DNA of 64,000 bases, taken from positions 1-64,000 of IMG/VR virus record IMGVR_UViG_3300028287_000410; one strand, given 5' to 3'. Made by a program: the position numbers and the translations under genes. Each line of letters opens with the position of its first letter. Position 1 is the stretch's first letter. Positions 657 through 53,728 of the stretch are shown in pieces. Origin of the DNA: a virus. The notes beneath the pieces were generated by a model, which worked only from the letters and a program-made list of their open reading frames with translations, had not been told where the DNA came from and did no database searches.

Positions 657-680
657 TATAACAATTATATTAACAATATA

Positions 681-704
681 AACCCAGCTTCGGCTGGGTT
701 TTTT
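681..704 (+). terminator. Rho-independent terminator
   Basis: aacccagc-ttcg-gctgggtt followed by a T run. Confidence 0.9.
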
Positions 705-720
705 GTTATCTGTTTAAAAA

Positions 721-728
721 GATAAATA
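721..728 (+). promoter_or_regulatory. T4-like late promoter variant GATAAATA
   Basis: One mismatch to T4 TATAAATA; about 35 nt before ATG 762; the same motif precedes several other genes. Confidence 0.6.
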
Positions 729-761: not shown

Positions 762-2111
762 ATGAGACTATTTGATCTATTTGAGAATGAAAATACAAAT
801 CTTGTCGTTGTGTATCCGGGACGTTTTCACCCGTTTCACGTAGGACATGGTAAAGTATTTCAGTATCTAAAGCAAAAGTATAAAGGTGCACAAGTCTTTA
901 TCGCTTCATCTGGAAATACAGATGCACATAAGTCGCCTTTTGAATTCAACGAAAAGAAAAAGATGATGATGCTTGCAGGCGTAGACCCAAATGCAATCGT
1001 ACAAACACGTATCCCATATGTAGCATCAGAGATAACAGATAGATTTGATCCAGATACAACAGTAGTTGTATATGCAGTATCAGAGAAAGATATGGCAGAA
1101 GATGCAAGATTTGATTTTCCTGCTGTAGGTAAGAAACTAAAAAAAGATGGTGACCCTGCACACGTTCAGAAATGGACGGGAATGAAAGATGCGCGTCCAT
1201 TACGTGAACATTCTTACATTGTTACAGTTCCTACATTCACATTTAAGATCCGCGGCGAAGCAGTTAACTCTGCTACACAAATTCGTAATATGATTGCGAA
1301 TGCAAATGAGCGTGAGCTAGTACAAATTCTACAAGACTTATATGGTCGTTCTGATATCCCACATGATGTAGTTGAAATCTTTAAGCGTAAGCTGGGTTCT
1401 AATACAGTAAGTGAAAACTGGGAAGAAGGTTCACTATTCGAATGTCTACTAGAAGTAGAGATTATGTGGGACATGAACATACTTACAGAAGCAGATGATG
1501 ATGATGTACGAGGATTTGATCCAAAGACAGTTAATGCTTTGAAGAATCTAAAAACCAAGTATCCACATGCAGATAATGTTGTAGGAGCATTAGTTGCAGA
1601 TGTTGAGGATTCGCAAAAAGTAAGTAAACAAAATGACATAGAACATGACATTAGTATCGCAGCATTAGAAGATAAAATAGACCAACTTGTGCAACAGCTA
1701 CAAAAACTAAAGAAGACCGAGGGAAGTACAATGAAAATTGAAGATATTGTAAATGAAGATATTACATTGACTGAAGACATTACGTTAGAAGATCATGAAG
1801 ATTTTCATGAAATGTTTGGCGAACTTGCATATTGCGAGAATGGTCTATTCGAAGCAGAATATCAAGGACGTACAGTACAACTAAACAAGCCAATGCAAGG
1901 TGACGTTAAGAAGTTTAAAGTGTATGTAAAGAACCCAAAAGGTAACGTAGTTAAAGTCAACTTTGGTCACGGCGGCACAAGTGCTAAAGGCAAGACTATG
2001 AAGATTAGAAAGTCTAATCCAAAAGCACGTAAGAGTTTTAGAGCAAGACACAATTGTGAGAATCCAGGACCAAAGCATAAGGCACGTTACTGGTCATGCC
2101 GTAAGTGGTAA
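762..2111 (+). CDS. HxGH nucleotidyltransferase (cytidyltransferase-like) domain fused to a basic C-terminal domain; probable virion-internal polyprotein
   Basis: PGRFHPFHVGH and NSATQIR motifs; basic C-terminus ending KARYWSCRKW; several L/I-x-E sites. Confidence 0.7.
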   Translation: MRLFDLFENENTNLVVVYPGRFHPFHVGHGKVFQYLKQKYKGAQVFIASSGNTDAHKSPFEFNEKKKMMMLAGVDPNAIVQTRIPYVASEITDRFDPDTTVVVYAVSEKDMAEDARFDFPAVGKKLKKDGDPAHVQKWTGMKDARPLREHSYIVTVPTFTFKIRGEAVNSATQIRNMIANANERELVQILQDLYGRSDIPHDVVEIFKRKLGSNTVSENWEEGSLFECLLEVEIMWDMNILTEADDDDVRGFDPKTVNALKNLKTKYPHADNVVGALVADVEDSQKVSKQNDIEHDISIAALEDKIDQLVQQLQKLKKTEGSTMKIEDIVNEDITLTEDITLEDHEDFHEMFGELAYCENGLFEAEYQGRTVQLNKPMQGDVKKFKVYVKNPKGNVVKVNFGHGGTSAKGKTMKIRKSNPKARKSFRARHNCENPGPKHKARYWSCRKW

Positions 2112-2122
2112 GGAGAGAATAA

Positions 2123-2965
2123 ATGAACGATTATACACATGATAACGGTGATAGAAATTTATCGGGCCCGCATTATGCAATGGAATATAATGTTGCAGGT
2201 GAACCTGCGCTACGTGTAATTGCTAACCTAAACGGTTGGGGCATTCAGGTAAGTAGTGGCGAAGTTGATGGCGTTTCGTATGTCGAGAAGTTCGGCTATC
2301 AAACTGACGTACCAAACGGTGATATTGCAACAGTATGGGACGGAACCGGATTATATGATTACCTAACAACCGTAACAACAGTAACAGTAACAAGCGATGA
2401 CTCTGATGACAACCCAGCAGGTTCAGGTGCTAGACAAGTAGAAATTCAAGGATTAGATCAAGATCACAATGTTGTGTTAGAAACTGTGGATCTAGGCGGT
2501 ACATCTATTACTACGTTTATTCGTGTATTCCGTGTAAGAGTATGCGTAAGCGGTGGTACAAATCCAAACCAAGGTGTTATCAGTGTAACTGGCGGCGGAA
2601 AAACACTTGCGATAATTGATAAACTTGCAAACAATGCTGACGGTCACGGACAAACAAATATGGCAATATACACTGTGCCTGCAGGTAAAACTGCATATCT
2701 TACACAATGGACAGTGAGCAGTGGCAAACAAAATGCAGACACTATTGCAAAACTAATGGTACGTGATACCTATCATCCAGATGATGGTGCATGGAATGTA
2801 AAAGATATTGTTGAAATTCAGGCAACTAGTTTCAATAAAGAATATAGAGTACCATTACAATTTACTGAAAAAACAGATATCGAAATTAGAGCGTTCAGTA
2901 ATACTGGTTCATCATGTACTAGTACATTCAACTTAATTTTAATTGACAACCCAGTAGAGGAATGA
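2123..2965 (+). CDS. Hypothetical beta-rich protein, possibly structural
   Basis: 280-aa ORF with GGAGAG SD; T/G/V-rich. Confidence 0.6.
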   Translation: MNDYTHDNGDRNLSGPHYAMEYNVAGEPALRVIANLNGWGIQVSSGEVDGVSYVEKFGYQTDVPNGDIATVWDGTGLYDYLTTVTTVTVTSDDSDDNPAGSGARQVEIQGLDQDHNVVLETVDLGGTSITTFIRVFRVRVCVSGGTNPNQGVISVTGGGKTLAIIDKLANNADGHGQTNMAIYTVPAGKTAYLTQWTVSSGKQNADTIAKLMVRDTYHPDDGAWNVKDIVEIQATSFNKEYRVPLQFTEKTDIEIRAFSNTGSSCTSTFNLILIDNPVEE

Positions 2966-2969
2966 TACA

Positions 2970-3770
2970 ATGAAGATCAATGAATTAGATAAAGGTGTTG
3001 GCGTAACACAACAGCAATTAGATGCTTTAGAAAAAGTATTAGATCAAGTGTTCTCTAAAGTGGGTATTGATATTGAATTTACTCGCCATTTCATTGATCG
3101 TGTTAATGATGAACGTAATGTTAAACCTATTACTATTAAAGAACTTGCAATGCTATTCAAAAAAGAGTTTATCAAGTACGGTAAACCAATTGCACAATTA
3201 GGTCCAGATGCACAAGCAGTGATGAAAGACTTAGAAAGTGACATTAATATCCCGTTTGCTTTAGAATGGAACGGCAAAGAATTAGAACTTATCGCCAAGA
3301 CAGTAATGCGTAAGAAGGACTTTAAAACTCCAAACAAAGAGTTCGCAGTAGAACGTAAACTTGCAGAAGACATGGGTTCTATCCCTCCATTAGCAGAACT
3401 TATTGTAATGGCAGTTGTAGCAAAGACAAGTGTTGATGTACTGATTGGTATGTTCAAAGTTGCACTAAAAACCGGTAAGGGACTAAAGAAACTAAATCAA
3501 CTACGCAAAAAAGTCAAGTCAACAGTTGGTGATACAGGACAACGTATCGCAGATTATGCTCTAGGCGAATCAACCCGTGACGAACTACTTGCACAGTTAA
3601 AAGATTCAAAAGAAAAGAAGTTCTACAATGCAGCATTAAATGCTTTACATAGCCTAGTAGTATCAAAAGGTAATAAGCAAAGTATCGGCGGCTATGCATT
3701 TGATATTGCACGTGCATTCAACGGTATTAAAGCTAAAGAACTAGAGAAGATGTACAATGAAATTCACTGA
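2970..3770 (+). CDS. Hypothetical multi-module protein (FTRHFIDR domain, amphipathic segment, helical domain)
   Basis: GAGG SD; MKINEL leader; overlaps next gene. Confidence 0.65.
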   Translation: MKINELDKGVGVTQQQLDALEKVLDQVFSKVGIDIEFTRHFIDRVNDERNVKPITIKELAMLFKKEFIKYGKPIAQLGPDAQAVMKDLESDINIPFALEWNGKELELIAKTVMRKKDFKTPNKEFAVERKLAEDMGSIPPLAELIVMAVVAKTSVDVLIGMFKVALKTGKGLKKLNQLRKKVKSTVGDTGQRIADYALGESTRDELLAQLKDSKEKKFYNAALNALHSLVVSKGNKQSIGGYAFDIARAFNGIKAKELEKMYNEIH

Positions 3771-5433
3771 AATATCTAACACAAAGCTGACAGAAGCATT
3801 TGACAATCCTTATCCATTTGAATTAATAGGACCCAATGACTCACAAGAGTTTTCAGCACTTGCTCAAACGCCAAATGGTATGTTAAGAATGGACTTTGAA
3901 GCAATAGATTACGATAACTTTGGTATCGACTTTTCAGTTGGCAAGAGCATGGGCAAAACAGATGCAGGTGACGAGTTTAGGGTATTCGCAACTGTAGTTG
4001 CAATGATGACAAAGTGGATCAAAACAGTTGGTATTAAACACGTAGAGAGTTTTGATTTTGGTGCTGATAAAACTGATCACGCTAGTGACGGTAGAGCAAG
4101 ACTATATACAAGATTTGCTAAAAAACTTGCTAGTCAACTAGGCTGGAAGTTAGAACAAAGTACTACAGCAAATGGTAGCACATCATTCTTTAGACTAGTT
4201 AATCCTAAACCAGTACCACGTGGACATGAGTACTGGGACGCACTAGATGAAGAAGTTGAAGTATCATTACACGGCGATACTAAAAAAGGTTATGTGTTAT
4301 CTAAGATTGAAGTATCGGGTGATGAGCGTAATGCTGGTCAGGGTACAAAAGCAATGCAAGACATTGTTGACAGAATGGATAGAGAAGGTGCTATTATCGC
4401 TCTAACACCAGATGATGCATTTGGTGGGAATAAGAATAGACTAATTAAGTTCTACAAGCGTTTTGGTTTCGTACCAAACAAAGGTCGCAACAAAGACTTT
4501 CGCTTTAGAGAAACAATGATCCGTTATCCACAAAGTAATGAAAGTGTTAACGAAGTATCAAAAGAAGAGTTTGATGCTATTCAGAATGGATACGTCGATA
4601 TTGAGTTTGATAAGAAATGGTGGCCCCTAAACGATGATTACCCACTGATCAAACATATCGGTAAAGCAATCGGCGCAACTAGTTGGACTAGTTGGGGTAA
4701 AGTTGGTGTCCCATGGTCAGAAACAGAAATGATCGGTGGCGGTGGCACATATATGCTTAAAGGTGATTTCGGTCATATCTTGTTGGATGCGGCTAAGAGT
4801 TTTAGACCAGAACAAATTTTAATGGCACAAATATCAACTTCTAATCGTGGTGGCGGTGTCGGCGTTAAAGTTATGAACGCAATAAAGTCATACGCAGATC
4901 AAAAGGGTTTGCCAATAACAATATATAAAGTAACTAACAAAAAGTTCTTTGATAAGTTTGAATGGTTGACAAAAACAGGCGAAGACACATACGAATATAA
5001 ACTTAATGAAAGTGTTAACGAAGGTTACAAACTACAACTAGAGCGTGACACTGATATGATGGTGTTGAACATTACTGACACAAAGACTGGTAAGCGCACA
5101 GAAGTTCGTGGCAAGAGTGGTTATGAAACTAACAACTATGACGCAAACGATAAGCTACATCAGTTACTAGATAAGATTAGCAAAAGTGCTGATATTTCGC
5201 AACTTATGAACGGCGAGCCTGTAGGCATTAATCCTAAACACCCAGATGGCCCAAGCGCAAAGACAGCAACAACTAAAGCATTTAATGAAGCCGCTGGAGT
5301 TGGTCGTGTTGTAAAAGGCGTAAATACAACTGTTGATGTGGGTGTAGATGAAATCATCAATCAAGTCAAAAAGTTCGGCAACGATGTAGATCGTGACGGT
5401 CTACCAAAAAAGATGCTACGTAAAAAGAAATAG
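3757..5433 (+). CDS. Multi-domain protein with at least two GNAT acetyltransferase-like modules
   Basis: RNAGQGTKAM...LIKFYKRFGF and NRGGGVGVKVM...KKFFDKF acetyl-CoA-binding-type motifs; modules separated by NESVNE. Confidence 0.7.
   Translation: MKFTEISNTKLTEAFDNPYPFELIGPNDSQEFSALAQTPNGMLRMDFEAIDYDNFGIDFSVGKSMGKTDAGDEFRVFATVVAMMTKWIKTVGIKHVESFDFGADKTDHASDGRARLYTRFAKKLASQLGWKLEQSTTANGSTSFFRLVNPKPVPRGHEYWDALDEEVEVSLHGDTKKGYVLSKIEVSGDERNAGQGTKAMQDIVDRMDREGAIIALTPDDAFGGNKNRLIKFYKRFGFVPNKGRNKDFRFRETMIRYPQSNESVNEVSKEEFDAIQNGYVDIEFDKKWWPLNDDYPLIKHIGKAIGATSWTSWGKVGVPWSETEMIGGGGTYMLKGDFGHILLDAAKSFRPEQILMAQISTSNRGGGVGVKVMNAIKSYADQKGLPITIYKVTNKKFFDKFEWLTKTGEDTYEYKLNESVNEGYKLQLERDTDMMVLNITDTKTGKRTEVRGKSGYETNNYDANDKLHQLLDKISKSADISQLMNGEPVGINPKHPDGPSAKTATTKAFNEAAGVGRVVKGVNTTVDVGVDEIINQVKKFGNDVDRDGLPKKMLRKKK
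4536..5023 (+). repeat. Exact 20-bp direct repeat TAATGAAAGTGTTAACGAAG at 4536-4555 and 5004-5023
   Basis: Read directly; each copy encodes NESVNE and the pair brackets one GNAT-like module. Confidence 0.9.
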
Positions 5434-5439
5434 GTTTAC

Positions 5440-6831
5440 ATGAGTTCCTCAAATTTTAACAAAGAAGTTGAAGATATCGAAAAGTCGCCTTTGGTTAAAA
5501 TAAATCCAAATGTACATGATTTATCTAAAACAATGTGCTTTAAGACCTGGAATGATATGATTATCAGTCTACCTCAGCGCACCGTTAAGTGGTGCTGTAA
5601 GGCACAATATACAGAAGAACAACAGAAGCAACTCACATTTGACCTTGATATCTTAGAAAAAGAAGGATTAGATTTCTTTGTAAATAACCCAATACTCACA
5701 CAACGTAAATATGAACTGAGTGGTGGGACACGTTCCGATGATTGTGTAGGTTGCTGGAAAACAGAAGATGCAAGTGGAAGTAGTGTACGTACCGAGTATA
5801 CAAAAAACTTTGAAATACTATGGAAACGAAGATTAGAAAAAGCGGCACATCATCCAAAGAAAGCAATACAATTTCATCAAGAAATTCAACAGCATGATGG
5901 TTTTCGTTTTATTGAATTAGAGCTTACAAACAAATGTAACATGGCATGTGCATATTGTTGGGAAGGTTCTAGTACACGTTGGCAAAAAGAAACTGGTAAT
6001 AGAATGCCAGATACAGATGATGCGATATTTTCAAAAGTAATTGAACTACTTAATGAATATTGGGAAGGTGATTTAGGCAAGAACAACTATGTTAATTTTA
6101 GTCTATTGGGTGGTGAACCGTTCTTTACTAATCACATGTATGAATTTTTAGAAGATTTCATCGTTAACCTAAATGATACGAAACGTACAGAACAGCGTAT
6201 AGTTGTAACCGTCACTACCAATCTAAACTTTCCAAAACACAAGTTTGATAAATTTATGGAACTCGTAAAGAGAACCCCTAATATTCAATATCAAATGCAG
6301 TTGTCAAACGAAGCAGTTGGCAAGCGCAGTGAACTAATACGATGGGGATTGAACTGGAACACTTGGGATAATAATTTAGATGCATTCTTTACAGAATCGA
6401 AGAAGCATAAAAATTTAATATTAGGATTTGGTTGCGCACATAATAGTTTAAGTTATCCTTATTATAAAGAATACCTAAAATACATCAATGAAAAAGTCAT
6501 ACATCATGATTTTAAAAGAACACTAATATTCCATACGAATTGGGTAGATAATCCAAATCATTTAGCTGTGAATATGATTGATCCTAATATGTCAGATGTT
6601 GCACAAGAAATAATCGATTATTTTGAGAATGAGTTTACTGCAAATGTATATCAGAAATCAAAATATACAAATGTATTGCGTACATTAAAAAGACATGTAG
6701 AATCCACGGTCAGTGATGAAGATAAAGAGAATGCGTTCAAGCAATTTAAAATACTTGAAGACCGTAGAAAAATTTCATTCGTAGAACAGTTTCCACACTA
6801 TAATAGTATAGTTAAAATCCCGCATAAATAA
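5440..6831 (+). CDS. Radical SAM protein with N-terminal Cys-rich (twitch/SPASM-like) region
   Basis: CNMACAYC and LGGEPF motifs; N-terminal C...WCC...CVGC. Confidence 0.85.
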   Translation: MSSSNFNKEVEDIEKSPLVKINPNVHDLSKTMCFKTWNDMIISLPQRTVKWCCKAQYTEEQQKQLTFDLDILEKEGLDFFVNNPILTQRKYELSGGTRSDDCVGCWKTEDASGSSVRTEYTKNFEILWKRRLEKAAHHPKKAIQFHQEIQQHDGFRFIELELTNKCNMACAYCWEGSSTRWQKETGNRMPDTDDAIFSKVIELLNEYWEGDLGKNNYVNFSLLGGEPFFTNHMYEFLEDFIVNLNDTKRTEQRIVVTVTTNLNFPKHKFDKFMELVKRTPNIQYQMQLSNEAVGKRSELIRWGLNWNTWDNNLDAFFTESKKHKNLILGFGCAHNSLSYPYYKEYLKYINEKVIHHDFKRTLIFHTNWVDNPNHLAVNMIDPNMSDVAQEIIDYFENEFTANVYQKSKYTNVLRTLKRHVESTVSDEDKENAFKQFKILEDRRKISFVEQFPHYNSIVKIPHK

Positions 6832-6851
6832 CATATAAGATAAATACTATT

Positions 6852-7055
6852 ATGAAAATAAATGAAATCATATCCGAAACTTTCGCTGGCTCATTTGCCG
6901 GGGTGAACACTTCCTTAGGAGGTGGTGATCCTGCTGCGAGTATATATGCCAAGAAGCCTAAGGGTAAGAAGAAAAAAACTAAAATGGGTTACAGTGCAGA
7001 TGTCGGTAATCTTGCATACAATAAACCAGTCAAAACACAAATGATTAAAAGATAA
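6852..7055 (+). CDS. Small basic hypothetical protein with MKINEIISE leader
   Basis: GATAAATA at 6839-6846 directly upstream; leader resembles those of neighbouring genes. Confidence 0.65.
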   Translation: MKINEIISETFAGSFAGVNTSLGGGDPAASIYAKKPKGKKKKTKMGYSADVGNLAYNKPVKTQMIKR

Positions 7056-7066
7056 GGTAGAATAAA

Positions 7067-8830
7067 ATGAAACTGTCACAACTAATCGAGTCTTTTGTAA
7101 TCTCTAATGATGAATTCGAAGATTACCTAAACAGAGCTACGGAACAATTAACACAAGAACTACAGTCAGGTAAGAACCCACGTGACGCAGTTCATGATTT
7201 AGCATTAACATTTGCAGATCAGCACAACAAATCATATGATGCATACACACGTATGTCAGACTCATTATCAGCAAGAATGCATACGTTAGAACTAGATGGT
7301 TCAACGTCTACTGAAATAGCTCCTGCCGATATGACGAACGGACCAGAAATGTCTGACATGGGTGCAGAACCAGAGATGATGACAGATCCAATGGGTGACA
7401 TGGAAATGGAAACTCCAGCACAAGACGAAATGCCAGGTGACAGTGACATGGAAGATTATGCTGCGGTAATGGACAATGAGCCAGAAGTTGAAGAATCAGT
7501 AAGTGAAGGCACAAAAGGCTGTGCTGACTGTGATTGGATTAAAGACGAAACTGATGGTGACGTTGATACATGTGATGAATGTGCGGCAGAAAAACGTCAA
7601 ACTAATGAATCAGAAAAGCGTTGGAAGCAAACTTCAATGTCTTCAGAAGATGCAATTAAACAATACGGCAAAGAAAACGTAAAAGTTAAAAAAGGCGCAT
7701 TGCGTAATGGCAATGACATGGTAGAAGTATTTGTTGAATCACTAAATGAAGACGATGAAGAAAAAGCACGCCAACGTGCGTTTGCTAAAGCAGACGAACC
7801 AGAGCGCGGCGAGAAACCTAAAAAGGTATCTCTAAAGAAAGCACCATGGGAAGAGTCAGTAAACGAAGGCGATGATACAGTTAAAGTAGTCTTTAGAAAA
7901 TTCGATAATGGTGATGTGATTGCATTGTTCCCAGAAGAAGAACAGGGTCGTGGACTGATTGGTTCATACATGGAAATTGGTCAGCATGGTGACGCATCTA
8001 AGTCATTGATTACTGACTTAGAACCAGCATCAAAAGAAGAATACGCAAAACTAGCCGCTGAATTAAAGCGCATTGGTTATGATATTGTTATGGCAGAGTC
8101 AGTAAACGAAGCGGCAGAATGCAAATATTGCGGTGGTGATTGCCCTAATGATGAAGAACATGCATGTGACGGCTACTTGGGTGATATTGACGGACTATAT
8201 GAAGCGAAAGCATCAGTACTAGACCAACTACAACGCATTGTAGATGACAAGCAAGCAAAGTCAATTAAGTTTGATGACGGTTCTTCAAAAGTAGACATGT
8301 TCACAGCATCAGCTATCACACAAGTACATGCTAAAGTAAACGATGCTAACAAAGCAAAGATTGAAAAAATGCTTAACACTCGTACAGGTTTAATGAAGAT
8401 TGCTAAAGTTGCAATGGGCGCATTAAAAGAAGGTAAGCTAGATGAAATTCTTCCAGCAGTAGGTGCTATAGCAGGTGGTATTGCAAGAGCAGCAGTGTCA
8501 AAAGGCATTAAAGGTGCAGCAACACGTGCAGGTATTAAAGGTGTAGCAAGCAAACTGGCACCGAACAATGAAGCAACTGATATAGCTGATAGAATTATGC
8601 GTACAAGTTCACGTCAATCATTCTCAGAGTATAACGAGTTTTATAAAGCACTAGATTCAGCAGCTAAAGCAGGTAAAAAAGCAGGCGACCATATTGAAGT
8701 TGGTGGCAAGAAAGTTAAATTGAAGTCTAATCCAAAGCAAATACATGACTTAACAGATGCAGAAATGGATAAGATTGATGCGTTAGCAAACCGTCTAAAT
8801 GAGATGTGCGGTAAAAAATATAAAAAATAA
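7067..8830 (+). CDS. Acidic modular polyprotein, probable internal head protein
   Basis: MKLSQLIES leader; ESVSE, ESLNE and two ESVNE junctions; two Cys-rich mini-modules. Confidence 0.7.
   Translation: MKLSQLIESFVISNDEFEDYLNRATEQLTQELQSGKNPRDAVHDLALTFADQHNKSYDAYTRMSDSLSARMHTLELDGSTSTEIAPADMTNGPEMSDMGAEPEMMTDPMGDMEMETPAQDEMPGDSDMEDYAAVMDNEPEVEESVSEGTKGCADCDWIKDETDGDVDTCDECAAEKRQTNESEKRWKQTSMSSEDAIKQYGKENVKVKKGALRNGNDMVEVFVESLNEDDEEKARQRAFAKADEPERGEKPKKVSLKKAPWEESVNEGDDTVKVVFRKFDNGDVIALFPEEEQGRGLIGSYMEIGQHGDASKSLITDLEPASKEEYAKLAAELKRIGYDIVMAESVNEAAECKYCGGDCPNDEEHACDGYLGDIDGLYEAKASVLDQLQRIVDDKQAKSIKFDDGSSKVDMFTASAITQVHAKVNDANKAKIEKMLNTRTGLMKIAKVAMGALKEGKLDEILPAVGAIAGGIARAAVSKGIKGAATRAGIKGVASKLAPNNEATDIADRIMRTSSRQSFSEYNEFYKALDSAAKAGKKAGDHIEVGGKKVKLKSNPKQIHDLTDAEMDKIDALANRLNEMCGKKYKK
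7852..8111 (+). repeat. Exact 17-bp direct repeat AGAGTCAGTAAACGAAG at 7852-7868 and 8095-8111
   Basis: Read directly; each copy encodes ESVNE and the pair brackets an approximately 76-aa domain. Confidence 0.9.
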
Positions 8831-8833
8831 CTA

Positions 8834-8862
8834 TTGACATAAGAACACCTCTGTGTTATATT
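8834..8862 (+). promoter_or_regulatory. sigma70-type promoter for the replication operon
   Basis: TTGACA-17 nt-TATATT with extended -10 TG. Confidence 0.65.
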
Positions 8863-9175: not shown

Positions 9176-11971
9176 ATGAGCTATGTAGACGCCTACTACA
9201 ACAAAGATAAAGATATTGTGCAAGTCGTTGAACGTATCAACGGCAAGCGCATTTATCAAGATTATCCTGCGTGGCGTACATTCTATGTACGTGACGATAG
9301 GGGATCTCATACAAGTATTCACGGTGAGAAAGTTCGTCAAGTGAAAGTCAAACGTAAGAAAGACTTGCACAAAGAACTACGTATGCATTCTGATAAGAAG
9401 ATTTATGAGAGTGATATTAAGCCGGAGATTAGATGTCTTGCTGAAAACTATCTTGGCAAGGACTCGCCAAAGTTGAATGTGGCGTTCTTCGATATCGAGG
9501 TTGACTTCGATGCGGCGCGCGGTTTTGCTCCGCCAGAAGATCCGTTCATGCCGATTACTGCAATTACAGTAGCATTGCAATGGACTGGACAACTTGTAAC
9601 ATTCGTTATCCCGCCAGAGCATATGCGTGAAGGTGGGGGACTAGACGAAGCACAACGACTATGTGGTAAGTTTGGAGATACGTTTTTGTATCTTAGCGAA
9701 GCAGATTTGTTGAATGACTTCTTAGCTCTTATCGAAGATGCAGATGTACTCAGTGGTTGGAACAGTGAAGTTTTCGATATTCCATACACTCTTAATCGTA
9801 TTGTGCGTGTGTTGAGTAAGTCACATACACGTAAGCTATGTCTGTGGGACTTGTATCCTACTCCTAAGAAACTTATTAAGTATGGAAAAGAACAAACAAG
9901 TTATAACCTACTCGGACGTATTCACCTCGATTATCTTGAACTGTATCGCAAGTACACATATCACGAAATGCATTCATATTCACTTGATGCTATCGGTGAG
10001 TATGAACTTGGTGAACGTAAGGTTGCATATGAGGGCACACTAGATCAGTTATACAATCAAGACTTCTATAAGTTTATTGAATATAACAGACAGGATACTG
10101 CATTACTCGACAAGCTAGACAGGAAGCTACAGTTCATTGACTTGGCAAACGAGATTGCACACGATAACACTGTTAACATTCAAACTACAATGGGTGCGGT
10201 TGCTGTGACTGAATCAGCCATCATCAACGAAGCACACAGACGTGGTATGGTTGTTCCAGATCGTAAGCGTAGATCATGGGATACAGAAGACGATGATTAT
10301 GAACCTACACGTGAAGAAGAGGAAGCGGCAGAAGCACAGAAAGCGGCTGGTGCATTCGTTGCAGATCCACAGAAGGGTCTGCAAAAGTGGGTTGCAGGTA
10401 TCGATATTAACTCGCTGTATCCTTCTATCATTCGTGCGTTAAACATGTCTCCAGAAACTATTACTGCACAACTTCGTCCTGACTTGACTGATGAAATGAT
10501 TCAGACACGTATCAGAACTGGTCGCGGTGGTAAGAGCAAAGGCTTTGGTGCCGCACAAGCATGGGAAGATACGTTCTCTACAGAAGAGTTTCGTCTGTTG
10601 AATGAAAAAGACAAGACACAAATAATGACTCTTGATATGGAAGATGGTTCTGAACATCAGTTGACTGGTGCAGAAGTAGCAGACTTAGTGTTCAGTGGCG
10701 ATTTGCCGTGGGCTATCAGTGCGAACGGCACTGTATTCAGACAAGACGTACAAGGTATCATTCCTAGTTTGCTTGAGCGTTGGTATGCAGAACGTAAAGT
10801 ACTACAAGCTAATAAGAAGAAAGCAATTGAAAAGGGCGATAAAGAAGAAATCGCTTTCTGGGATAAACGACAGCTAGTTAAGAAGATTAACTTGAACAGT
10901 TTGTATGGTGCGATCCTTAATCAAGGGTGTCGTTTCTATGATAAACGTATCGGGCAATCAACTACTCTATCAGGTCGTTGTATCACACGTCACATGGGTG
11001 CTAAGACTAATGAAGTTATCGATGGCACGTATGACTATAAAGGCAAATCAGTTATCTATGGCGATACTGACTCTATCTACTATTCAATGTATCCTTCATA
11101 TCACAAAGAAATCGATAGCGGTGAGATTGAATGGGATAAAGAGATTGCTCTTACTATGTATGACGAAATTGCAGATCAAGTAAACGCAAGTTTCCCTGAC
11201 TTTATGAAAGACTTCTTTAATGTCCCTCGCAAGCAAGGTGAAATCATTGCTGCAGGACGTGAGAACTTAGCAACGTCTGCTATCTTTATTAAGAAGAAAC
11301 GTTATGCTATGCTTATCTACGATGATGATGGTGAACGCCGTGATGTCGATGGTAAACCTGGCAAAGTTAAAGCTATGGGACTTGACTTGAAACGTTCTGA
11401 TACTCCAGACTATATGCAAACATTTCTTAGTTCGTGTTTGCTTAAAGTACTTACTGGTGGGGATCAAGATGATATCATTGATATGGTCAAAGAGTTTAAG
11501 AAAGAGTTTCGCAATAAGCCGGGTTGGGAGAAAGGTACTCCTAAGCGTGTTAACAACTTGACTAAGTTCAAGAACGATGTAGCAAAATACAAGAAAGCAC
11601 AGAATGCAGACTTCAAGCTACGTAGTTCAGAAGACAAGTTGCAGAAGCCTAGACTTCCGGGACACGTGAGTGCTGCATTGAACTGGAATACATTACGTGA
11701 AATGCATGGGGATCGTTATTCTATTGAGATTACAGATGGTATGAAAACTATCGTGTGTAAGCTAAGAGACAATCCCATGAAGATGAAAAGTATTGCATAT
11801 CCAATTGATGCAGATCGAATTCCAGAATGGTTCCAAGAACTTCCGTTCGATCATGATTTGATGGAAACAACAATCATTGACAAGAAGATTGACAACTTGA
11901 TTGGTGTTCTGAAATGGGACTTGCGCAATGCTAGTAACAGTGAAACTTTTGAAGATTTGTTTTCATTCTAA
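9176..11971 (+). CDS. Family B DNA polymerase (gp43-like) with 3'-5' exonuclease
   Basis: FDIEV, GWNSEVFDIPY, YNRQD, DINSLYPS, KKINLNSLYG and YGDTDS motifs. Confidence 0.97.
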   Translation: MSYVDAYYNKDKDIVQVVERINGKRIYQDYPAWRTFYVRDDRGSHTSIHGEKVRQVKVKRKKDLHKELRMHSDKKIYESDIKPEIRCLAENYLGKDSPKLNVAFFDIEVDFDAARGFAPPEDPFMPITAITVALQWTGQLVTFVIPPEHMREGGGLDEAQRLCGKFGDTFLYLSEADLLNDFLALIEDADVLSGWNSEVFDIPYTLNRIVRVLSKSHTRKLCLWDLYPTPKKLIKYGKEQTSYNLLGRIHLDYLELYRKYTYHEMHSYSLDAIGEYELGERKVAYEGTLDQLYNQDFYKFIEYNRQDTALLDKLDRKLQFIDLANEIAHDNTVNIQTTMGAVAVTESAIINEAHRRGMVVPDRKRRSWDTEDDDYEPTREEEEAAEAQKAAGAFVADPQKGLQKWVAGIDINSLYPSIIRALNMSPETITAQLRPDLTDEMIQTRIRTGRGGKSKGFGAAQAWEDTFSTEEFRLLNEKDKTQIMTLDMEDGSEHQLTGAEVADLVFSGDLPWAISANGTVFRQDVQGIIPSLLERWYAERKVLQANKKKAIEKGDKEEIAFWDKRQLVKKINLNSLYGAILNQGCRFYDKRIGQSTTLSGRCITRHMGAKTNEVIDGTYDYKGKSVIYGDTDSIYYSMYPSYHKEIDSGEIEWDKEIALTMYDEIADQVNASFPDFMKDFFNVPRKQGEIIAAGRENLATSAIFIKKKRYAMLIYDDDGERRDVDGKPGKVKAMGLDLKRSDTPDYMQTFLSSCLLKVLTGGDQDDIIDMVKEFKKEFRNKPGWEKGTPKRVNNLTKFKNDVAKYKKAQNADFKLRSSEDKLQKPRLPGHVSAALNWNTLREMHGDRYSIEITDGMKTIVCKLRDNPMKMKSIAYPIDADRIPEWFQELPFDHDLMETTIIDKKIDNLIGVLKWDLRNASNSETFEDLFSF

Positions 11972-44235: not shown

Positions 44236-45291
44236 TTATTCTACTAAGTTTAGACCGTCTATAACATCCCCATCAATGACCATATCAACCGGATGTTTTT
44301 CACCATAGAATTCATTCTGTTCCCAGCACTGGTCTTCTTCATTCCAATCAAACCAAGGGCTAACTGCTAATACGTAGTTAGTCCTTTTGTACCCTGGCAT
44401 TGGCTTTGCTACATATGGGCGATGTGTCACATATGTATCCCAAACATACCAATTTCCGGGAGTAAATGACTTTGTTCCATAATCTTCAATTTCAATACCA
44501 TATGCATTCTCTGGATTATCAAGTGCTAAGTTTATACGAAGTTCGTAAAACCAGCTTTCATCTCTGTGCCATAGGAATTTGTTTGCAGTCTCTTGTGTTG
44601 CTTTATCATCGATGCCTTTAATCTGAGCAATGCGACTACGCACAGGCGAAGACTTAATTCTATCCCTTAGTGTGCCTAAATATTCATGTCCAGAACATTC
44701 ACTCCAATTTCTAAATCCCCATGTGTCTGGGTACGTATCTTTGTTGATACGTTCACCTACGTCTTTTCTATCTTCGTATGTATCTAAAAGTTCATTTAGT
44801 ACAGTATCGTCAATTATACCATGTTGATGTAAATATCTAAACCCATGATGCATCCCAAACTCCTGGGTCTCACTCCACAAGTCTTTATCTAGACGTTTTT
44901 CCATAATCTTTTCAAATAATGAAAAGTTCTTCATAAACAGTTCATCTGGAATGTTATTTCTAGGATACCCTAATGTCTGTGCATTCTTTGGAATATTGTC
45001 ATATCTATATGTAGGATTAGTCACCAAACTCAATCCACCATAGTTAGAACTTCTAGCAAATTTACCTTGATATATGTTTAGAAACCCATACCAACCATAC
45101 TTTACGAATGCGTCTTCGATACTGTCTCTTAGTGTGTCCACATCTAATTTCGTATCTTCAAATTCGAACAATACACCTTCTTTGCTTGGTTTCATTGTTT
45201 TAGCATATTTGTCAGTATCCAGAGTTTCTGCAATCCAGGCATGGACTGCTTTTCTATCTGGGCAATCTTTTATGTAAAATCTTTTCTTCAT
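44236..45291 (-). CDS. Putative 2OG-Fe(II) oxygenase
   Basis: WHRDE, distal THRP and RTNYVL in a beta-rich C-terminal domain. Confidence 0.55.
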   Translation of the reverse strand: MKKRFYIKDCPDRKAVHAWIAETLDTDKYAKTMKPSKEGVLFEFEDTKLDVDTLRDSIEDAFVKYGWYGFLNIYQGKFARSSNYGGLSLVTNPTYRYDNIPKNAQTLGYPRNNIPDELFMKNFSLFEKIMEKRLDKDLWSETQEFGMHHGFRYLHQHGIIDDTVLNELLDTYEDRKDVGERINKDTYPDTWGFRNWSECSGHEYLGTLRDRIKSSPVRSRIAQIKGIDDKATQETANKFLWHRDESWFYELRINLALDNPENAYGIEIEDYGTKSFTPGNWYVWDTYVTHRPYVAKPMPGYKRTNYVLAVSPWFDWNEEDQCWEQNEFYGEKHPVDMVIDGDVIDGLNLVE

Positions 45292-46463
45292 TTTTTATAA
45301 CTCACATCTCCGGGATAGATAGGAACCATTGCGCCGGGCGCACGTTTTGGAATTTTACTGTCAGCACTAGATACACAACTATCTGAAATACACACCTTAG
45401 GCGCATCGAATAGTTTAAACCCACTCTCAATATACCCTAAGGGCTCGTCAGAACAACTGTAAGAGCGTTTAATAGACCCATCAGGCTCACGTATAATAAT
45501 ACCCTTAAACCCGCTTGTACAATCCCAACCTTTAAACTTGTTAAAGTTAAACGCATTAAAGCGTTCTGCTTGGTCCATGTAGTACTTGTCACCTTTACTA
45601 TCTTCGAACTCTACTTGCATGATAGGTGGGACATTCTTATCATCGCCATTAATCATATCCATCTTCCACATGCTTCCTGTGCGTGGCTTTGGACGCATTG
45701 CTTTAATAGTATTCGCTTTTTCAATAGTATCAGTGTACGCACGTTGTGGCATACCATTCTGCATCATCTTTAGTTGTTCGTCTGTGTATCCGTCTACAAC
45801 ACGTGATGCAGTAGGATCTGACTGTGGTTTTAGAGTAACATTGATTCCACGCTCATGAAAGTACATTGCGTTATTCCAATCTCTATCAAACCAGTCTGGT
45901 ACAAGTACCATATTGATTGTTACTTGCACATCATGTTCCATACAGAATAGAAGTTTGTCAGCAAATTCATCCATCTTTGCATATTCACTGTGATAAGATG
46001 CAGTAATACTTGCACGATGAAACTTTGCAACAATGTCACAATATTTCTGAAACCAATCCATCTTACGTGCCATATTTGTTGTCATATGAACAGAGGTATA
46101 ATTAGTGTTATCGACATCATCAGCCAAATGCTGCAAAATATCCAAGTATCCTGGATGAAAAGTAGGCTCACCGCCAGACAAAGAAAAATGGAAACTATTA
46201 AAACTGTTATCACGTGCTTGCCTCTTAATTTCATCTATGGTCGCTAGACACAACTCTGTTGGTCTATGATCTTTTCTATCACTTCTGGCATAAGGCCAGC
46301 AGTACGAACACTTGTAGTTACAGAAACGTCCTAATAACCAAGACACTGAAAACAAATCCCTGTATAAAAGTGTTCGTTGACCTACCTTAACGATATCATC
46401 ATACGGCGTTGCTGTAAAGTCGTATTGTGACCAGTAGTCTGCATCTTTTTCAATCTTATCCAT
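45288..46463 (-). CDS. Radical SAM protein with C-terminal Cys cluster
   Basis: CNYKCSYC and SGGEPT motifs; C-terminal C...C...CxxxxC. Confidence 0.88.
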   Translation of the reverse strand: MDKIEKDADYWSQYDFTATPYDDIVKVGQRTLLYRDLFSVSWLLGRFCNYKCSYCWPYARSDRKDHRPTELCLATIDEIKRQARDNSFNSFHFSLSGGEPTFHPGYLDILQHLADDVDNTNYTSVHMTTNMARKMDWFQKYCDIVAKFHRASITASYHSEYAKMDEFADKLLFCMEHDVQVTINMVLVPDWFDRDWNNAMYFHERGINVTLKPQSDPTASRVVDGYTDEQLKMMQNGMPQRAYTDTIEKANTIKAMRPKPRTGSMWKMDMINGDDKNVPPIMQVEFEDSKGDKYYMDQAERFNAFNFNKFKGWDCTSGFKGIIIREPDGSIKRSYSCSDEPLGYIESGFKLFDAPKVCISDSCVSSADSKIPKRAPGAMVPIYPGDVSYKK

Positions 46464-46465
46464 TA

Positions 46466-47893
46466 TTATACCTTGTATTTTTTCATCGCGTTATATAGTT
46501 CTGGCAACTGACGTTCCATATCTTCGTCGCGGATGTCATCTAACTTGCTGTTATATTCCCAAAACTTTTTATTGTTTTCTTCTGTGAACCAATCTTCTCC
46601 GTACATGAAATTAATATTCGTGTCTAACAGATTATCCATTTTCTTGATAGCCCACTCTGCATTTGCAGGTTTTATCATTCCTATTACGTTTGGATTTTTC
46701 TTAACTAGACTATGAAAATCAATAGTGTGTACTATTTCTTCTTTAAATTCAGTCCTAAATGCTTCCCAACTATCACGTACTTCATCCTTTACATCTTTCG
46801 GTAGGAAACGAGTACTTAATTCATGTGGTTTGTGAATAGGGTGTACATTTGCAAAAGGTTTTAAGTTATTCTTCAGTATAGGAGAGATAACTGCAAAATC
46901 TTGTTCAATCTTCCATTTTAAAAACTCTGGCAAATGAAATGCATTTAGGGAACCGATAGTAAATGCAATCCAGGCTCTAAAATTCATAGTCTGTGTGCCT
47001 ACTTCATCTAGTTTCTTTAGATTTTTTTCTATTAGTTTTGACTTCAATGGGTTGCGTACATATTCTAGTGTGTCTCCGATACCGTCCATAGAGATACCAA
47101 ACTGTACTTGCTTAAAGTTAGTCCATAAGTCTAACGCACGTGGTTGGATATTTGTTAGGTTAGTATTATACTCAAGTGTCATTTCTTTTGCTTTACCTTG
47201 CTCTACACAATACTTTAAGAAATCATAATGTCTTTCAATAATAAGTGGTTCGCCGCCTACTAGATATACGTGTTGCATACCAGCTACGTTCTCTTCTAAG
47301 TTCTCCCAGAAGTGATCTTTGTGTACCCAATCGTAATCATCAGCGACATACTTTCCCTTCTTATTCTTATACATTTCAACGACACCATGTGTGTCTTTGA
47401 ATTTACTTGATCCCCACATTTTAACATAGTCATCATACCAAGCACTAGAATCCATCGGTGAACACATACGACATTTTAAGTTACAAAAGTTACCTAATCG
47501 AATATCGTAATACGTTTGCTTAATATGCTCTAAGTCTATTGTACCATCTTCTTCTGTATGAGCTACCGCCTGATCCCAAGTAATGTGTTGTGCAAAACGT
47601 TCACCATCATTGATACGTCGAGATTTCATACCTGCTTTTTCTTCACGTACACAACGAATACATTCCTTATGCCACTTACCTTCAAGCATAGTAGAACGAA
47701 TTTCTTTTGCTAATGGAGAGTTAATCGCATCAGTGATTTGGTCATGATGCAAATTATAGTTTGTTCCGTCTTCTTTCTTGTAAATACCACGTGTCGGTCC
47801 TTGATTAGCATGACAACACACACGCAAATCTCCATTTGCACGTGTCGAAATGTTTATCCATGGTAGAATACAGAATGTATCACTCTTTTGCAT
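46466..47893 (-). CDS. Radical SAM protein with N-terminal twitch domain
   Basis: FCILPW...RVCC...CIRC, CNLKCRMC and GGEP motifs. Confidence 0.9.
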   Translation of the reverse strand: MQKSDTFCILPWINISTRANGDLRVCCHANQGPTRGIYKKEDGTNYNLHHDQITDAINSPLAKEIRSTMLEGKWHKECIRCVREEKAGMKSRRINDGERFAQHITWDQAVAHTEEDGTIDLEHIKQTYYDIRLGNFCNLKCRMCSPMDSSAWYDDYVKMWGSSKFKDTHGVVEMYKNKKGKYVADDYDWVHKDHFWENLEENVAGMQHVYLVGGEPLIIERHYDFLKYCVEQGKAKEMTLEYNTNLTNIQPRALDLWTNFKQVQFGISMDGIGDTLEYVRNPLKSKLIEKNLKKLDEVGTQTMNFRAWIAFTIGSLNAFHLPEFLKWKIEQDFAVISPILKNNLKPFANVHPIHKPHELSTRFLPKDVKDEVRDSWEAFRTEFKEEIVHTIDFHSLVKKNPNVIGMIKPANAEWAIKKMDNLLDTNINFMYGEDWFTEENNKKFWEYNSKLDDIRDEDMERQLPELYNAMKKYKV

Positions 47894-49115
47894 ATTCGTT
47901 CATCTCCGTATCTTCAAAGTTCTCTTCGCCGTTGCCTCTGAAGTCTAATTCTTTACCACAAGTCTTACCGCAAATCCAAAGACGTTCATCTGAATTTGTT
48001 TCCCAGCTTGCTACTAAGTCATTTGCAAAATATGGGGTTTTGAGTATATCAAATAATGAATGTTTTGATAAATCATTGAAATCTTTGCCATATCGTTTCC
48101 ACATATTCTTATTGTCTTCGATACGTCTTGGCGTTGCCATATCGTGTCCTATTTTACTATAGTAATGTCCCTGCCAACAGCAAGGCCATACTTTACCCTG
48201 ATAATCGATAAAAATACTCTTATCTCTTTTAGTTTGACATGCTATTTCTGTAACCTTTACATAATTATCAAACCCTTTGTGCTTTTTAATTACATCATCT
48301 ACTTTATTAGTAGTATTAGATTTTGTTTTTGTAGGTTCTGCTAAAATAGTTGCAAGTGCTTTCTCTTTTTGTTCTGTTGTCTTACTTTCAATTTTCTTTT
48401 TGTTTTTTGCTACATGTTGTTTAGCAACAAATGTTAATTCTTTTTTAGTTTCAATAGCTTCGACTTCTTCTCCCTCGTAATGTGTAGGGATAACATATCT
48501 ATTTGATTTCTTATATCTAAACTTGACAAAGCCCATGTCTTCTGCTAGTTGTCTCGCTTCATCTATCTGATGCTCATTGTGTGCAAAGCCTATGAAGTCC
48601 CAACGTGCAATGCCACCATTAGCAATGAATGCTTTTGCATTACGCATAATAATATTCCACTTAGAATTCACACGATACAAATGATTAGTGTCTTCTAGTC
48701 CATCGATAGCAAAGATAACCTTGTCTGGCTTTCGCATAATAGATGCAAGTTCAATCCACCACGCTTCCGTCTGTGCAGAACCGTTTGTACTCAACGTAAC
48801 TTGTGCTACTCCCATATCTTTGCACATCTTTACCACTTCTAGTAAATATGGATACATGATAGGATCACCGTAGTTCCCATTAATGAATACGTGATTAGGA
48901 AGAAACGGTTTCATGTCTTCCAATGCTTGTTGTATTACTCTAGGATCAGTATCAGTTAAGTCTAAATCATCACGCTTCTTTAGCTTTATGTTATCTCCAT
49001 CCATGCCAGTTGTTCTTCCGCACATCGGGCACAGTAAGTTGCACCTAGAAGTAAGTTCTAAATGCATCACACCTACATCAAATTTGATGTACTCTAAGTT
49101 CTCTGATTTCGCCAT
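47880..49115 (-). CDS. Radical SAM/SPASM protein
   Basis: CNLLCPMC, GNYGDP and GKVWPCC...CGKTCG motifs. Confidence 0.9.
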   Translation of the reverse strand: MAKSENLEYIKFDVGVMHLELTSRCNLLCPMCGRTTGMDGDNIKLKKRDDLDLTDTDPRVIQQALEDMKPFLPNHVFINGNYGDPIMYPYLLEVVKMCKDMGVAQVTLSTNGSAQTEAWWIELASIMRKPDKVIFAIDGLEDTNHLYRVNSKWNIIMRNAKAFIANGGIARWDFIGFAHNEHQIDEARQLAEDMGFVKFRYKKSNRYVIPTHYEGEEVEAIETKKELTFVAKQHVAKNKKKIESKTTEQKEKALATILAEPTKTKSNTTNKVDDVIKKHKGFDNYVKVTEIACQTKRDKSIFIDYQGKVWPCCWQGHYYSKIGHDMATPRRIEDNKNMWKRYGKDFNDLSKHSLFDILKTPYFANDLVASWETNSDERLWICGKTCGKELDFRGNGEENFEDTEMNEYAKE

Positions 49116-50689
49116 CTTAAAAATATTTCTTTAGGTAAGTTTCTGTATGCATGATTCAGTTCTTTAATTTGCATTCCTCTAGTAGGAGTGCCGTCCCAGT
49201 CAGCACTATGTAATCGAATTCTATTGTTTAATTTACTAACATCATTAACAAAACGTTTGTATACGTCCCGTCTTTCTTCATATGATTTAATCCACATTGT
49301 GTAACGTGTAGTTATATAGTTACTACTCCACATAACATCCTCAGTTGTATCATCTTGTGTAGTGTCGATCATTGGAAGTAAAGAACTCCAGTCAGTGATT
49401 AAGTTTGCTTGTGTATATGTTACTTTATTATCCCTTACTCTTTCAAAGAACTCATACCATTCTTCCATGCTGTTAAAGATACGCAAGATACTTGCTTCGT
49501 ATGCTTCTTTAGCACGTTCACGTTCTGATGCCCAGTCCTCAGACATATAATCGAAATCTTCATATATAGAGATTAACCCTATATCTTTATTATAATAGTT
49601 TTCTTTCAAAAAGTCAAGATACATATTAAAGTTTCTTGGATCCCATTCTTCATGGACCCACTTGCGTACATCTAATGCATTTTGTGAAATGTCAAAGTAA
49701 TTAATATTAACTGCGTCTATGTCTGTATCAGCATGCCAGTTTCTTAGAAAAGCAAATGTTTTAAATCCTGCTGCAACTGAATACACGTTACGCAACGGCT
49801 TTTTGTTAGGTACCATTTGAATATCGTTTACACTTTCTGTATTTAATATCCACATGGCATGAGGAGAACGTTCAACTGTAAATTGCTGATAACGTAGGAA
49901 TGCAGATTTAGAATCGCCCAAGTCTGACTCCCAATGTTTAAAGTCAGCACATCCTTCTTTAAAGAATTGTTTAAACTCAGTTTGTTCTTCTTTAATTTCT
50001 GGATATAAGTATGTCTTTGTAGCTCTTACATCTTCATCAAAGTTTCCTATAGCAATGCCATTCTCTAGACTAGTGTTTATAAAGTTCCACCCAAATCCAG
50101 TACGAGTAATTTTTTCATAAGCTGGTCCGGGTGCAATATACTTAGGAGTATGCTCATCGTGAAAGTTCTCTATACTACGAAGTGCTTGTCTTACTTCTGT
50201 AGGACGAACACTAAAATCACCGAATGCAGGCTCTCCTAGTTCTTTCCATAATTTATAATTGATTATAAAACATTGCTCATGAAATCTGAACCATCTATCT
50301 TTATGACGTTCATCAAGTATATGTCCCAATATTAGGAATTCATTATTCTGTGCCTTAGGTAAGTATTCGTGATTGCAGTATTCTCTGAATAAACTATATC
50401 CGTGTTCTAGTGGCTTCCAAGCATCATAAAATATATTACCGTATGCTTGAACTACAACCATATCAATATCAGATTCTTTATCATCTGTTTTCATTGCTTG
50501 TAAAATTTTATCTACACTGTCTTCTTCGTAAATAGTATGCTTAAAAAAACTATAATTATTTCGCAAGAAATTATAAGTGATTGCTTTCATGTAATCACTA
50601 ATTTCAGTATCACCTATTGTTTTAGATGTATCTAATACAGCACATCTAATCTGTGGATAAAAGTTATATGATCTTTGTTGCTTCTTCAT
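49094..50689 (-). CDS. Hypothetical 531-aa protein (possible GT-like N-terminus and Rossmann-like C-terminus)
   Basis: Long ORF in the operon; YSVAAGFK...YFDISQNAL segment; weak. Confidence 0.55.
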   Translation of the reverse strand: MKKQQRSYNFYPQIRCAVLDTSKTIGDTEISDYMKAITYNFLRNNYSFFKHTIYEEDSVDKILQAMKTDDKESDIDMVVVQAYGNIFYDAWKPLEHGYSLFREYCNHEYLPKAQNNEFLILGHILDERHKDRWFRFHEQCFIINYKLWKELGEPAFGDFSVRPTEVRQALRSIENFHDEHTPKYIAPGPAYEKITRTGFGWNFINTSLENGIAIGNFDEDVRATKTYLYPEIKEEQTEFKQFFKEGCADFKHWESDLGDSKSAFLRYQQFTVERSPHAMWILNTESVNDIQMVPNKKPLRNVYSVAAGFKTFAFLRNWHADTDIDAVNINYFDISQNALDVRKWVHEEWDPRNFNMYLDFLKENYYNKDIGLISIYEDFDYMSEDWASERERAKEAYEASILRIFNSMEEWYEFFERVRDNKVTYTQANLITDWSSLLPMIDTTQDDTTEDVMWSSNYITTRYTMWIKSYEERRDVYKRFVNDVSKLNNRIRLHSADWDGTPTRGMQIKELNHAYRNLPKEIFLRWRNQRT

Positions 50690-53697: not shown

Positions 53698-53728
53698 ATT
53701 AACTCCAATACTTTGATTATGTACGTAT

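Follow-up and report, generated by a model that had tools for sequence, protein, structure and literature searches.

A probable hypervariable cargo locus of a T4-core jumbo myovirus, with candidate head-protease sites between protein modules

Introduction

The capsid targeting sequence of phage T4 and the cutting rule of its head protease gp21 are textbook knowledge, and polyvalent proteins form a known bioinformatic class. Here we describe a block of genes at positions 762–8830 of a 64,000-nucleotide stretch of viral DNA (the window), which is the first 64 kb of the 107,762-bp IMG/VR viral contig IMGVR_UViG_3300028287_000410 (CheckV completeness ~30%). Five proteins of the block begin with similar short leaders, and the larger ones chain unrelated modules at joints that end in a hydrophobic residue, any residue and Glu (hydrophobic-x-Glu). 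We read the block as a hypervariable cargo locus whose products may be packaged in the head, like T4 internal proteins or polyvalent proteins, and cut at the joints by the prohead protease. To this reading we give a probability of about 0.55.

The nearest described counterparts are the internal proteins of T4. In the T4 genome (NC_000866), the leader of IPI runs to 19 residues and ends I-T-E before Ala, those of IPII and IPIII are 10 residues long and end I-A-E, and gp24 starts M-A-K-I-N-E-L-L-R-E, with similar starts in gp22 and gp21. Capsid-targeting propeptides of this kind span 10–19 residues and follow an L/I-x-E cutting rule, and the tag has been suggested to let T4-like phages load varied proteins (PMC9026906). 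In T-even phages the internal proteins are encoded at two highly variable loci, for which over 30 variants are noted (PMC2839356). The block shares with IPI, IPII, IPIII and Alt a short leader ending hydrophobic-x-Glu before Ala, Ser or Gly, and with the T4 internal proteins a late-promoter-like motif and, in a relative, a T4-type S77 protease. Both kinds of locus are hypervariable, hold unrelated cargo behind a common leader and have tRNA genes adjoining. T4 internal proteins, however, are single, small and cut only at the leader (Alt also C-terminally), whereas blocks of the present kind encode chains of 450–790 amino acids (aa) with 3–7 unrelated modules and a fixed five-residue joint, known here from sequence alone. 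Modules are also exchanged in frame within genes, not just gene by gene. By analogy, the block probably corresponds to the internal-protein loci of T-even phages.

Polyvalent proteins (Iyer et al. 2017, PMC5512222) resemble the block in joining unrelated conflict-type domains in one polypeptide and in their extensive mosaicism. The conflict-type domains here are GNAT, nucleotidyltransferase and Zn-ribbon-like modules, with ParB_N in a homologue from G001, a relative introduced below. One 558-aa protein of the block combines at least two unrelated domains (DUF6934-like, GNAT, GNAT-like and two further modules). Described polyvalent proteins contain embedded peptidase domains or are uncut; the block has no peptidase domain, and every joint fits the head-protease motif. 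The setting differs as well, being a T4-core jumbo myovirus with an apparent T4-type leader in place of a MuF or portal-associated domain. A third comparison is offered by the inner-body and ejection proteins of phiKZ, 201phi2-1 and SPN3US, which are cut by a diverged gp21 homologue. Cutting after Glu at a three-residue motif affects many head-internal proteins of the phiKZ group; the sites are redundant, and some of the proteins yield several fragments that are retained (PMC9026906), much as we propose for the block. The motif there is S/A-x-E rather than hydrophobic-x-E, the lineage is different, and neither a shared leader nor cassette-like joint repeats have been reported for those proteins.

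T-even tail-fibre adhesins are known to swap domains at conserved His-box motifs. PeSL-mediated modular shuffling in T4-type genomes likewise uses short conserved sequences as recombination points (PMC2839356), and in this the block is similar. It departs from both in that the motif used for recombination is internal to cargo genes and may serve as a protease site as well. T4-type phages with a series of many cargo modules behind a single leader, joined throughout in frame at head-protease sites, were not described in the papers searched. New here would be the combination of T4 internal-protein targeting with polyvalent proteins, together with protease-site joints that appear to double as in-frame recombination points.

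Leaders and joints of the block

Seven open reading frames (ORFs), all on the plus strand, fill the block; five have a leader and two do not (2123–2965 and 5440–6831). The five leaders are 5–13 residues long and end L-F-E, I-N-E, L-T-E, I-S-E and L-I-E. When a regular expression for the leader (M, K/R, hydrophobic, 1–2 residues, E/Q/D, hydrophobic) was run on the 109 ORFs of the whole contig, six matched, five of them being the block genes. There are six copies of the pentapeptide E-S-[VLI]-[NS]-E in 34,170 residues, against a mean of 0.21 and a maximum of 2 in 300 residue shuffles, and all six copies fall in two ORFs: 3757–5433 (aa 262 and 418) and 7067–8830 (aa 143, 224, 263 and 344). [VLI]-N-E is about six times as dense in the five tagged proteins as in the remaining proteome, and within them it is confined to leaders, joints or a position 8 residues from a C-terminus. 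Candidate cut sites also occur in double or triple tandem. An earlier note on this DNA, made from the sequence without database searches, had claimed five genes with similar leaders and unrelated domains joined by ESVNE-type pentapeptides or by L-T-E, L-D-E or L-F-E. The ORFs are as it described, the counts bear out both leader and pentapeptide, and the three-residue joints are indeed found at module borders.

The first tagged gene (762–2111) encodes a 449-aa protein with its leader at aa 1–8, ending L-F-E, and a cytidylyltransferase-like module (PF01467) at aa 17–115. Inside the protein lies a former leader, M-K-I-E-D-I-V-N-E, with its Met retained (nucleotides, nt, 1731–1757), and the C-terminal phrog_7595 module begins immediately after an L-F-E at nt 1845–1853. 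The 266-aa basic protein (2970–3770) has the leader M-K-I-N-E and, at aa 12–126, a module common to Melnitz and the phiM12 group; phiM12 gp159, which has one module in common, is uninformative in both annotation and sequence. In the 558-aa polyprotein (3757–5433), a 13-aa leader ending L-T-E before Ala (nt 3757–3795) precedes, from N- to C-terminus, a DUF6934-like module (aa 14–165), GNAT 1, GNAT-like 2, module D and a small C-terminal module. Its joints are, in order, L-D-E (4243–4251), ESVNE (4540–4554), ESVNE (5008–5022) and F-N-E (5281–5289). GNAT 1 is homologous to a domain of DarB-like and PLxRFG giant proteins and to phrog_10691 (a profile of 3925 positions); an ESM Atlas search returned unnamed viral clusters and, as its only lead, DUF6934.

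The remaining two tagged genes contrast in size and charge. A 67-aa peptide (6852–7055) has a leader that ends I-S-E at aa 9, and the 58 residues after it are very basic (isoelectric point, pI, 10.3), resembling a T4 internal protein. The 587-aa polyprotein (7067–8830) is acidic (pI 4.7) and starts with a leader ending L-I-E (7082–7090), followed by a helical N-domain and an acidic stretch rich in Met, Asp and Pro. Its joints are the pentapeptide at 7493–7507, 7736–7750, 7853–7867 and 8096–8110 and L-Y-E at 8195–8203. Its modules include two Cys-rich mini-domains, whose Cys patterns resemble zinc ribbons (CxxC...CxxC), and a module at aa 268–343 that has small stand-alone homologues. An L-N-E at 8795–8803 (aa 577–579) lies 8 residues before the basic C-terminus, and relatives keep it or have L-S-E; this hints that the C-terminus may be trimmed, which has been reported for T4 Alt and gp21.

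Two sites may point to late expression. A late-promoter-like GATAAATA at 721–728 (plus strand) lies 41 nt upstream of the first tagged gene, and a second at 6839–6846 (plus strand) lies 13 nt upstream of a start codon. The earlier note had placed late promoters at 721 and 6839; late-promoter-like sites are present there, but the sequence is GATAAATA, and the canonical T4 TATAAATA was rejected at both positions. In G001, 10 of the 13 copies of GATAAATA fall within 80 nt upstream of a start codon, and the portal and head-core genes have it within 45 nt upstream.

Exchange of modules at leaders and joints

Two scans of IMG/VR yielded 56 loci (L numbers below), and the comparison spans about 50 related viral contigs, with more than 50 distinct tagged proteins. 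We tabulated the residues that precede each module in all six-frame translations of these loci. Nearly all distinct contexts end in hydrophobic-x-Glu, directly or within 2–4 residues before the module, and a single module can have up to nine distinct upstream contexts with the same hydrophobic-x-Glu in front of it. Across 8–9 contexts, positions P3 and P1 are constant and P5, P4 and P2 vary.

Modules that follow a joint in one phage follow a leader in another. In L047, GNAT-like module 2 is a 161-aa stand-alone gene whose 9-aa leader abuts the residue that follows the joint in the window, and in another contig module D stands directly behind an 11-aa leader. Module D, the small C-terminal module and the C-terminal part of the 449-aa protein (as a 124-aa gene) are all stand-alone tagged genes in relatives. 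Judged from these cases, leader and joint are interchangeable, and the constant element is the hydrophobic-x-Glu before the module.

Order and content vary too. Within the 558-aa family, module D is C-terminal in the window and leader-adjacent in L040–L042 and L048, and permuted module orders are found in L040, L042, L048 and L052. Some relatives in this family hold ParB_N or other modules (the G001 homologue has ParB_N, GNAT-like and others), and the G001 homologue of the nucleotidyltransferase has no leader. Gene and module content differs among L037, L039, L041, L045, L047 and G001, making the locus polymorphic. A comparable block with similar leaders is present in the cultured marine T4-like Methylophilales phage Melnitz (L074, record 12–26 kb), where a 650-aa tagged protein is homologous to the nucleotidyltransferase protein and the block holds homologues of three window modules.

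The joints are repeats in the DNA as well. A 20-bp exact direct repeat at 4536–4555 (plus strand), with its second copy at 5004–5023, encodes the joints that flank GNAT-like module 2; another, matching at 19 of 20 positions, lies at 7849–7868 (plus strand) and 8092–8111 and encodes those that flank the module at aa 268–343. When 15 homologues of the 587-aa protein are aligned, the joints are the start and end points of insertions and deletions. What lies between the repeats at 7849 and 8092 is precisely what is missing from L011 and L012, which in addition carry a further Cys-rich module ahead of a joint. Four relatives are without the other Cys-rich module, and in three others it is relocated, with duplicated joint sequence flanking it. 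Because near-identical joint copies lie within a gene and relatives show deletion from repeat to repeat, the joint-coding repeats also act as in-frame recombination points at which modules are inserted, deleted, moved, fused or split. Of the two roles considered for the joint this is the better shown, and it is a property that the earlier note missed.

Recombination is not the whole account of the joint. Its Ser is encoded by both AGY and TCN codons, and close homologues can differ in this at one and the same junction; codon choice varies for Val and Asn too, and the joint is retained in homologues of 44–56% identity. The use of two Ser codon families and the survival in diverged homologues indicate that the joint is constrained as protein and is not solely a DNA recombination signal. 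A tentative synthesis, to which we give somewhat less than even odds, is that the joint has a dual purpose: the peptide would be a head-protease cut site and its coding DNA an in-frame recombination site, giving plug-in, combinatorial capsid cargo. Modules could then be inserted, deleted, moved, and fused to or split from a leader with their function kept, which would explain why leader and joint are interchangeable.

The same data bear on a different explanation, in which the joints are fusion scars or flexible linkers, that is, leader remnants of once separate genes combined with recombination repeats. The proteins would then act uncut, as polyvalent proteins, even if their leaders are real. 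The fossil leader within the 449-aa protein and the separate tagged gene that corresponds to the C-terminal part of that protein both fit this account, as do the DNA repeats to which indels map, and many polyvalent proteins, the N4 virion RNA polymerase among them, are believed to function, or to be packaged, without processing (PMC5512222). Scars, however, would not be expected to hold P3 and P1 constant while P5, P4 and P2 vary, nor to be kept as peptide in both Ser codon families and in diverged homologues. No Met-Lys remnant lies upstream of the joints, and the tandem double and triple sites recall the protease-redundant propeptides of phiKZ (PMC9026906). We regard scars or linkers as unlikely, though they are the most serious competitor to cutting at the joints.

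Module borders were also compared with homologues from outside. Outside homologues or profiles start and stop at joints in the 449-aa protein (aa 365–449) and the 266-aa protein (aa 12–126), and are bounded by joints in the 558-aa protein (aa 155–259) and the 587-aa protein (aa 272–344 and 385–454). For sequence-defined borders of this kind, the agreement is stronger support than that of the structural models. AlphaFold2 models of the two polyproteins, built from 14-sequence alignments (mean predicted local distance difference test, pLDDT, 50 and 48), place the six pentapeptides, L-D-E and both leaders in coil, within or bordering low-confidence stretches that separate blocks of secondary structure. 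This agrees weakly with the cutting hypothesis.

A gp21-type protease in a distant relative

G001, a 299,910-bp record (86% complete) that lies behind L049, is a distant relative with a homologous cargo block beside dsbA and the DNA polymerase gene. It also has a T4 head module, comprising portal (PF07230), a 71-aa core protein, an acidic core protein, protease, scaffold and Gp23 capsid protein, and the protease is a gp21-type Peptidase_S77 (PF03420, E 5.5e-26). The 71-aa head-core protein, encoded beside the protease, has a leader of the same kind as the cargo proteins. From its position relative to the conserved core common to T4 gp23, the cut in the capsid propeptide is placed after L-A-E; T4 gp23 is cut after L-T-E. 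Scaffold proteins are the canonical gp21 substrate class, and the G001 scaffold has the top [LIV]-N-E density among proteins of at least 100 aa, with 4 in 363 residues (P 5e-4) against 0.98 per 1000 in the proteome. A 716-aa polyprotein of G001 has 6 (P 9e-5).

These similarities count against the idea that leader and joint serve other machinery and that the proteins remain outside the capsid. Under that idea the leader might dock proteins to the tail or baseplate, the joint might be the substrate of another phage or host protease, or the A-rich gene start might simply enhance translation. It has some attraction, as the block in L041 adjoins tail-fibre-like genes, the leaderless 280-aa neighbour has homologues labelled tail fiber protein in some cyanophages, and M-K-I-N-E is encoded by A-rich codons. 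Yet the leaders match the N-termini of T4 IPI, gp24, gp22 and gp21, which are cut by gp21 inside the head, as well as the G001 core protein encoded beside the protease, and a translation enhancer is not expected internally at module borders. We consider a role in other machinery improbable.

With these comparisons, the interpretation that the earlier note had put forward, of packaged polyproteins cut into separate effectors, is partly supported. Three of its four proposed checks could be made in silico, and all three agree with it. The prohead protease gene that it proposed to locate is found with head genes in the 300-kb relative (PF03420) and is absent from the contig. Its motifs coincide with domain borders as defined by outside homologues and PHROG/Pfam ranges and fall in coil or low-confidence stretches of the models, and across relatives modules are swapped, dropped, moved or split exactly at the motifs. 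GNATs, a nucleotidyltransferase and Cys-rich mini-domains are all present; the word effector is borrowed for them by analogy.

Proposed path of the cargo and points against it

We propose that the block genes would be transcribed late, from the GATAAATA promoters. The leader (M-K/R-hydrophobic-x-acidic-hydrophobic, ending hydrophobic-x-Glu) would direct the products into the prohead scaffolding core, where a gp21-type prohead protease would remove it and would cut the large proteins after each hydrophobic-[N/S/T]-Glu joint, mostly Glu-Ser-Val-Asn-Glu. The freed modules (a nucleotidyltransferase, two GNAT-type modules, DUF6934, Cys-rich mini-domains and basic peptides) would stay in the head and exit with the DNA. 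We infer packaging, cleavage and injection from sequence patterns. As GNAT 1 is kin to a domain of DarB-like and PLxRFG proteins and a relative carries ParB_N, a role early in the next infection is plausible by analogy.

Several points weigh against packaging and cutting. No prohead protease, capsid or other head gene was found on the 107,762-bp contig, which is a fragment about 30% complete, and the protease evidence is drawn from a distant relative. The three-residue cut rule is short: hydrophobic-x-Glu accounts for about 1.8% of tripeptides and is found within predicted folded parts too. Conservation of the five-residue joint, in turn, exceeds the known gp21 requirement, and the capsid and core proteins of G001 do not use the joint, apart from one E-S-I-D-E. 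The junction rule has exceptions, since Thr-x-Glu takes the place of hydrophobic-x-Glu before some copies of the EKAR module. The leader of the 266-aa protein may be only 5 residues long, against the 10-residue T4 tag. A sigma-70-like site (11/12) with an extended -10 TG, at 2943–2971, ends on the start codon of ORF 2970–3770 inside the presumed late unit, and could allow earlier expression. The AlphaFold models are poor (mean pLDDT 48–50). The 587-aa N-domain has no detectable homology to the G001 head-core protein, and the GNAT homologue of Agrobacterium phage Atu_ph07 is not annotated as a virion protein.

Two candidate comparisons were set aside. The 587-aa N-domain is not claimed as a gp67/68 homologue, given the lack of homology to the G001 head-core protein. 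Atu_ph07 was rejected as a proxy for virion proteomics as too distant: its sole homologue belongs to an array of GNAT paralogues, and there is no synteny at the locus.

If packaging and cutting are right, the block would explain how giant T4-core phages diversify the proteins delivered with their DNA. Leader and joint together would form a sequence rule for predicting virion cargo and mature protein ends from metagenomes, and the block would offer a natural template for packing several proteins into T4-type capsids with a single gene.

Leaderless genes and surroundings of the block

A radical SAM gene without a leader (5440–6831, plus strand) is embedded between the two polyproteins, next to the 67-aa peptide gene; its product is probably not cargo. 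Its presence raises the possibility that the tagged proteins are multi-core precursors like those of ribosomally synthesized and post-translationally modified peptides (RiPPs), with Cys-rich or other small peptides modified by the embedded enzyme and then released. Cys-rich modules are present, and the 55-aa basic peptide gene that is the G001 equivalent shares 35 nt with a radical SAM gene. However, the radical SAM proteins of the window and of G001 share no homology beyond CxxxCxxC, the blocks of L041 and L045 lack the gene, and many radical SAM genes lie elsewhere in these phages. Most modules are folded enzymes of 80–160 aa (GNAT, nucleotidyltransferase), and the Cys patterns are zinc-ribbon-like. 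A conserved pairing of precursor and maturase was not found; because the radical SAM genes are non-homologous and dispensable, we rejected the RiPP reading, which we judge very improbable. Leaderless radical SAM genes thus occur in three places: the window block, the G001 cargo block and, between portal and core genes, the G001 head module (minus strand, L061:2125–3186 for the cargo block and L070:6949–7971 for the head module).

The second leaderless gene (2123–2965, plus strand) encodes the 280-aa protein, a homologue of the cyanomyovirus 'virion protein' S-SCSM1 gp031, so that the block includes a leaderless virion-protein homologue. S-SCSM1 gp031 belongs to a structural module and lies between tail fibre and terminase genes.

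The block is framed on both sides. A terminator-like intrinsic hairpin at 680–701 (plus strand) ends the upstream unit. At the other end, a strong sigma-70-like promoter (11/12) at 8834–8862 (plus strand) marks the end of the block and opens the next unit, which contains dsbA and the DNA polymerase gene. The family-B DNA polymerase (9176–11971) has 42–50% identity to those of Sinorhizobium phage Phosso, Agrobacterium phage Atu_ph07 and Rak2-like jumbo phages, and a DsbA of T4 type is encoded before it. On the strength of this DsbA and of the polymerase's kinship to jumbo phages, the contig is assigned as a piece of a T4-core jumbo myovirus genome. No near-identical DNA was found in cultured phages.

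A tRNA-Pro gene at 57–133 precedes the cargo block, and T4 ipI likewise adjoins a tRNA cluster (T4 record 71–74 kb, L076); placement beside tRNA genes may be conserved in both phages or may be coincidence. Further intergenic copies of GATAAATA lie upstream of genes at 408, 25648 and 28913 in the window and at 66093, 66183, 95335 (minus strand) and 53733 (minus strand) in contig coordinates, and one of these precedes a gene of the tail-fibre-like cluster at the contig's far end. By their sequence, such sites could provide a map of the lineage's late regulon. Long runs of minus-strand genes at 44236–63022 of the window and at 77–89 kb of the contig encode many radical SAM-like proteins with an N-terminal motif of the Cys-x-Leu-Pro type, which are not part of the cargo finding.

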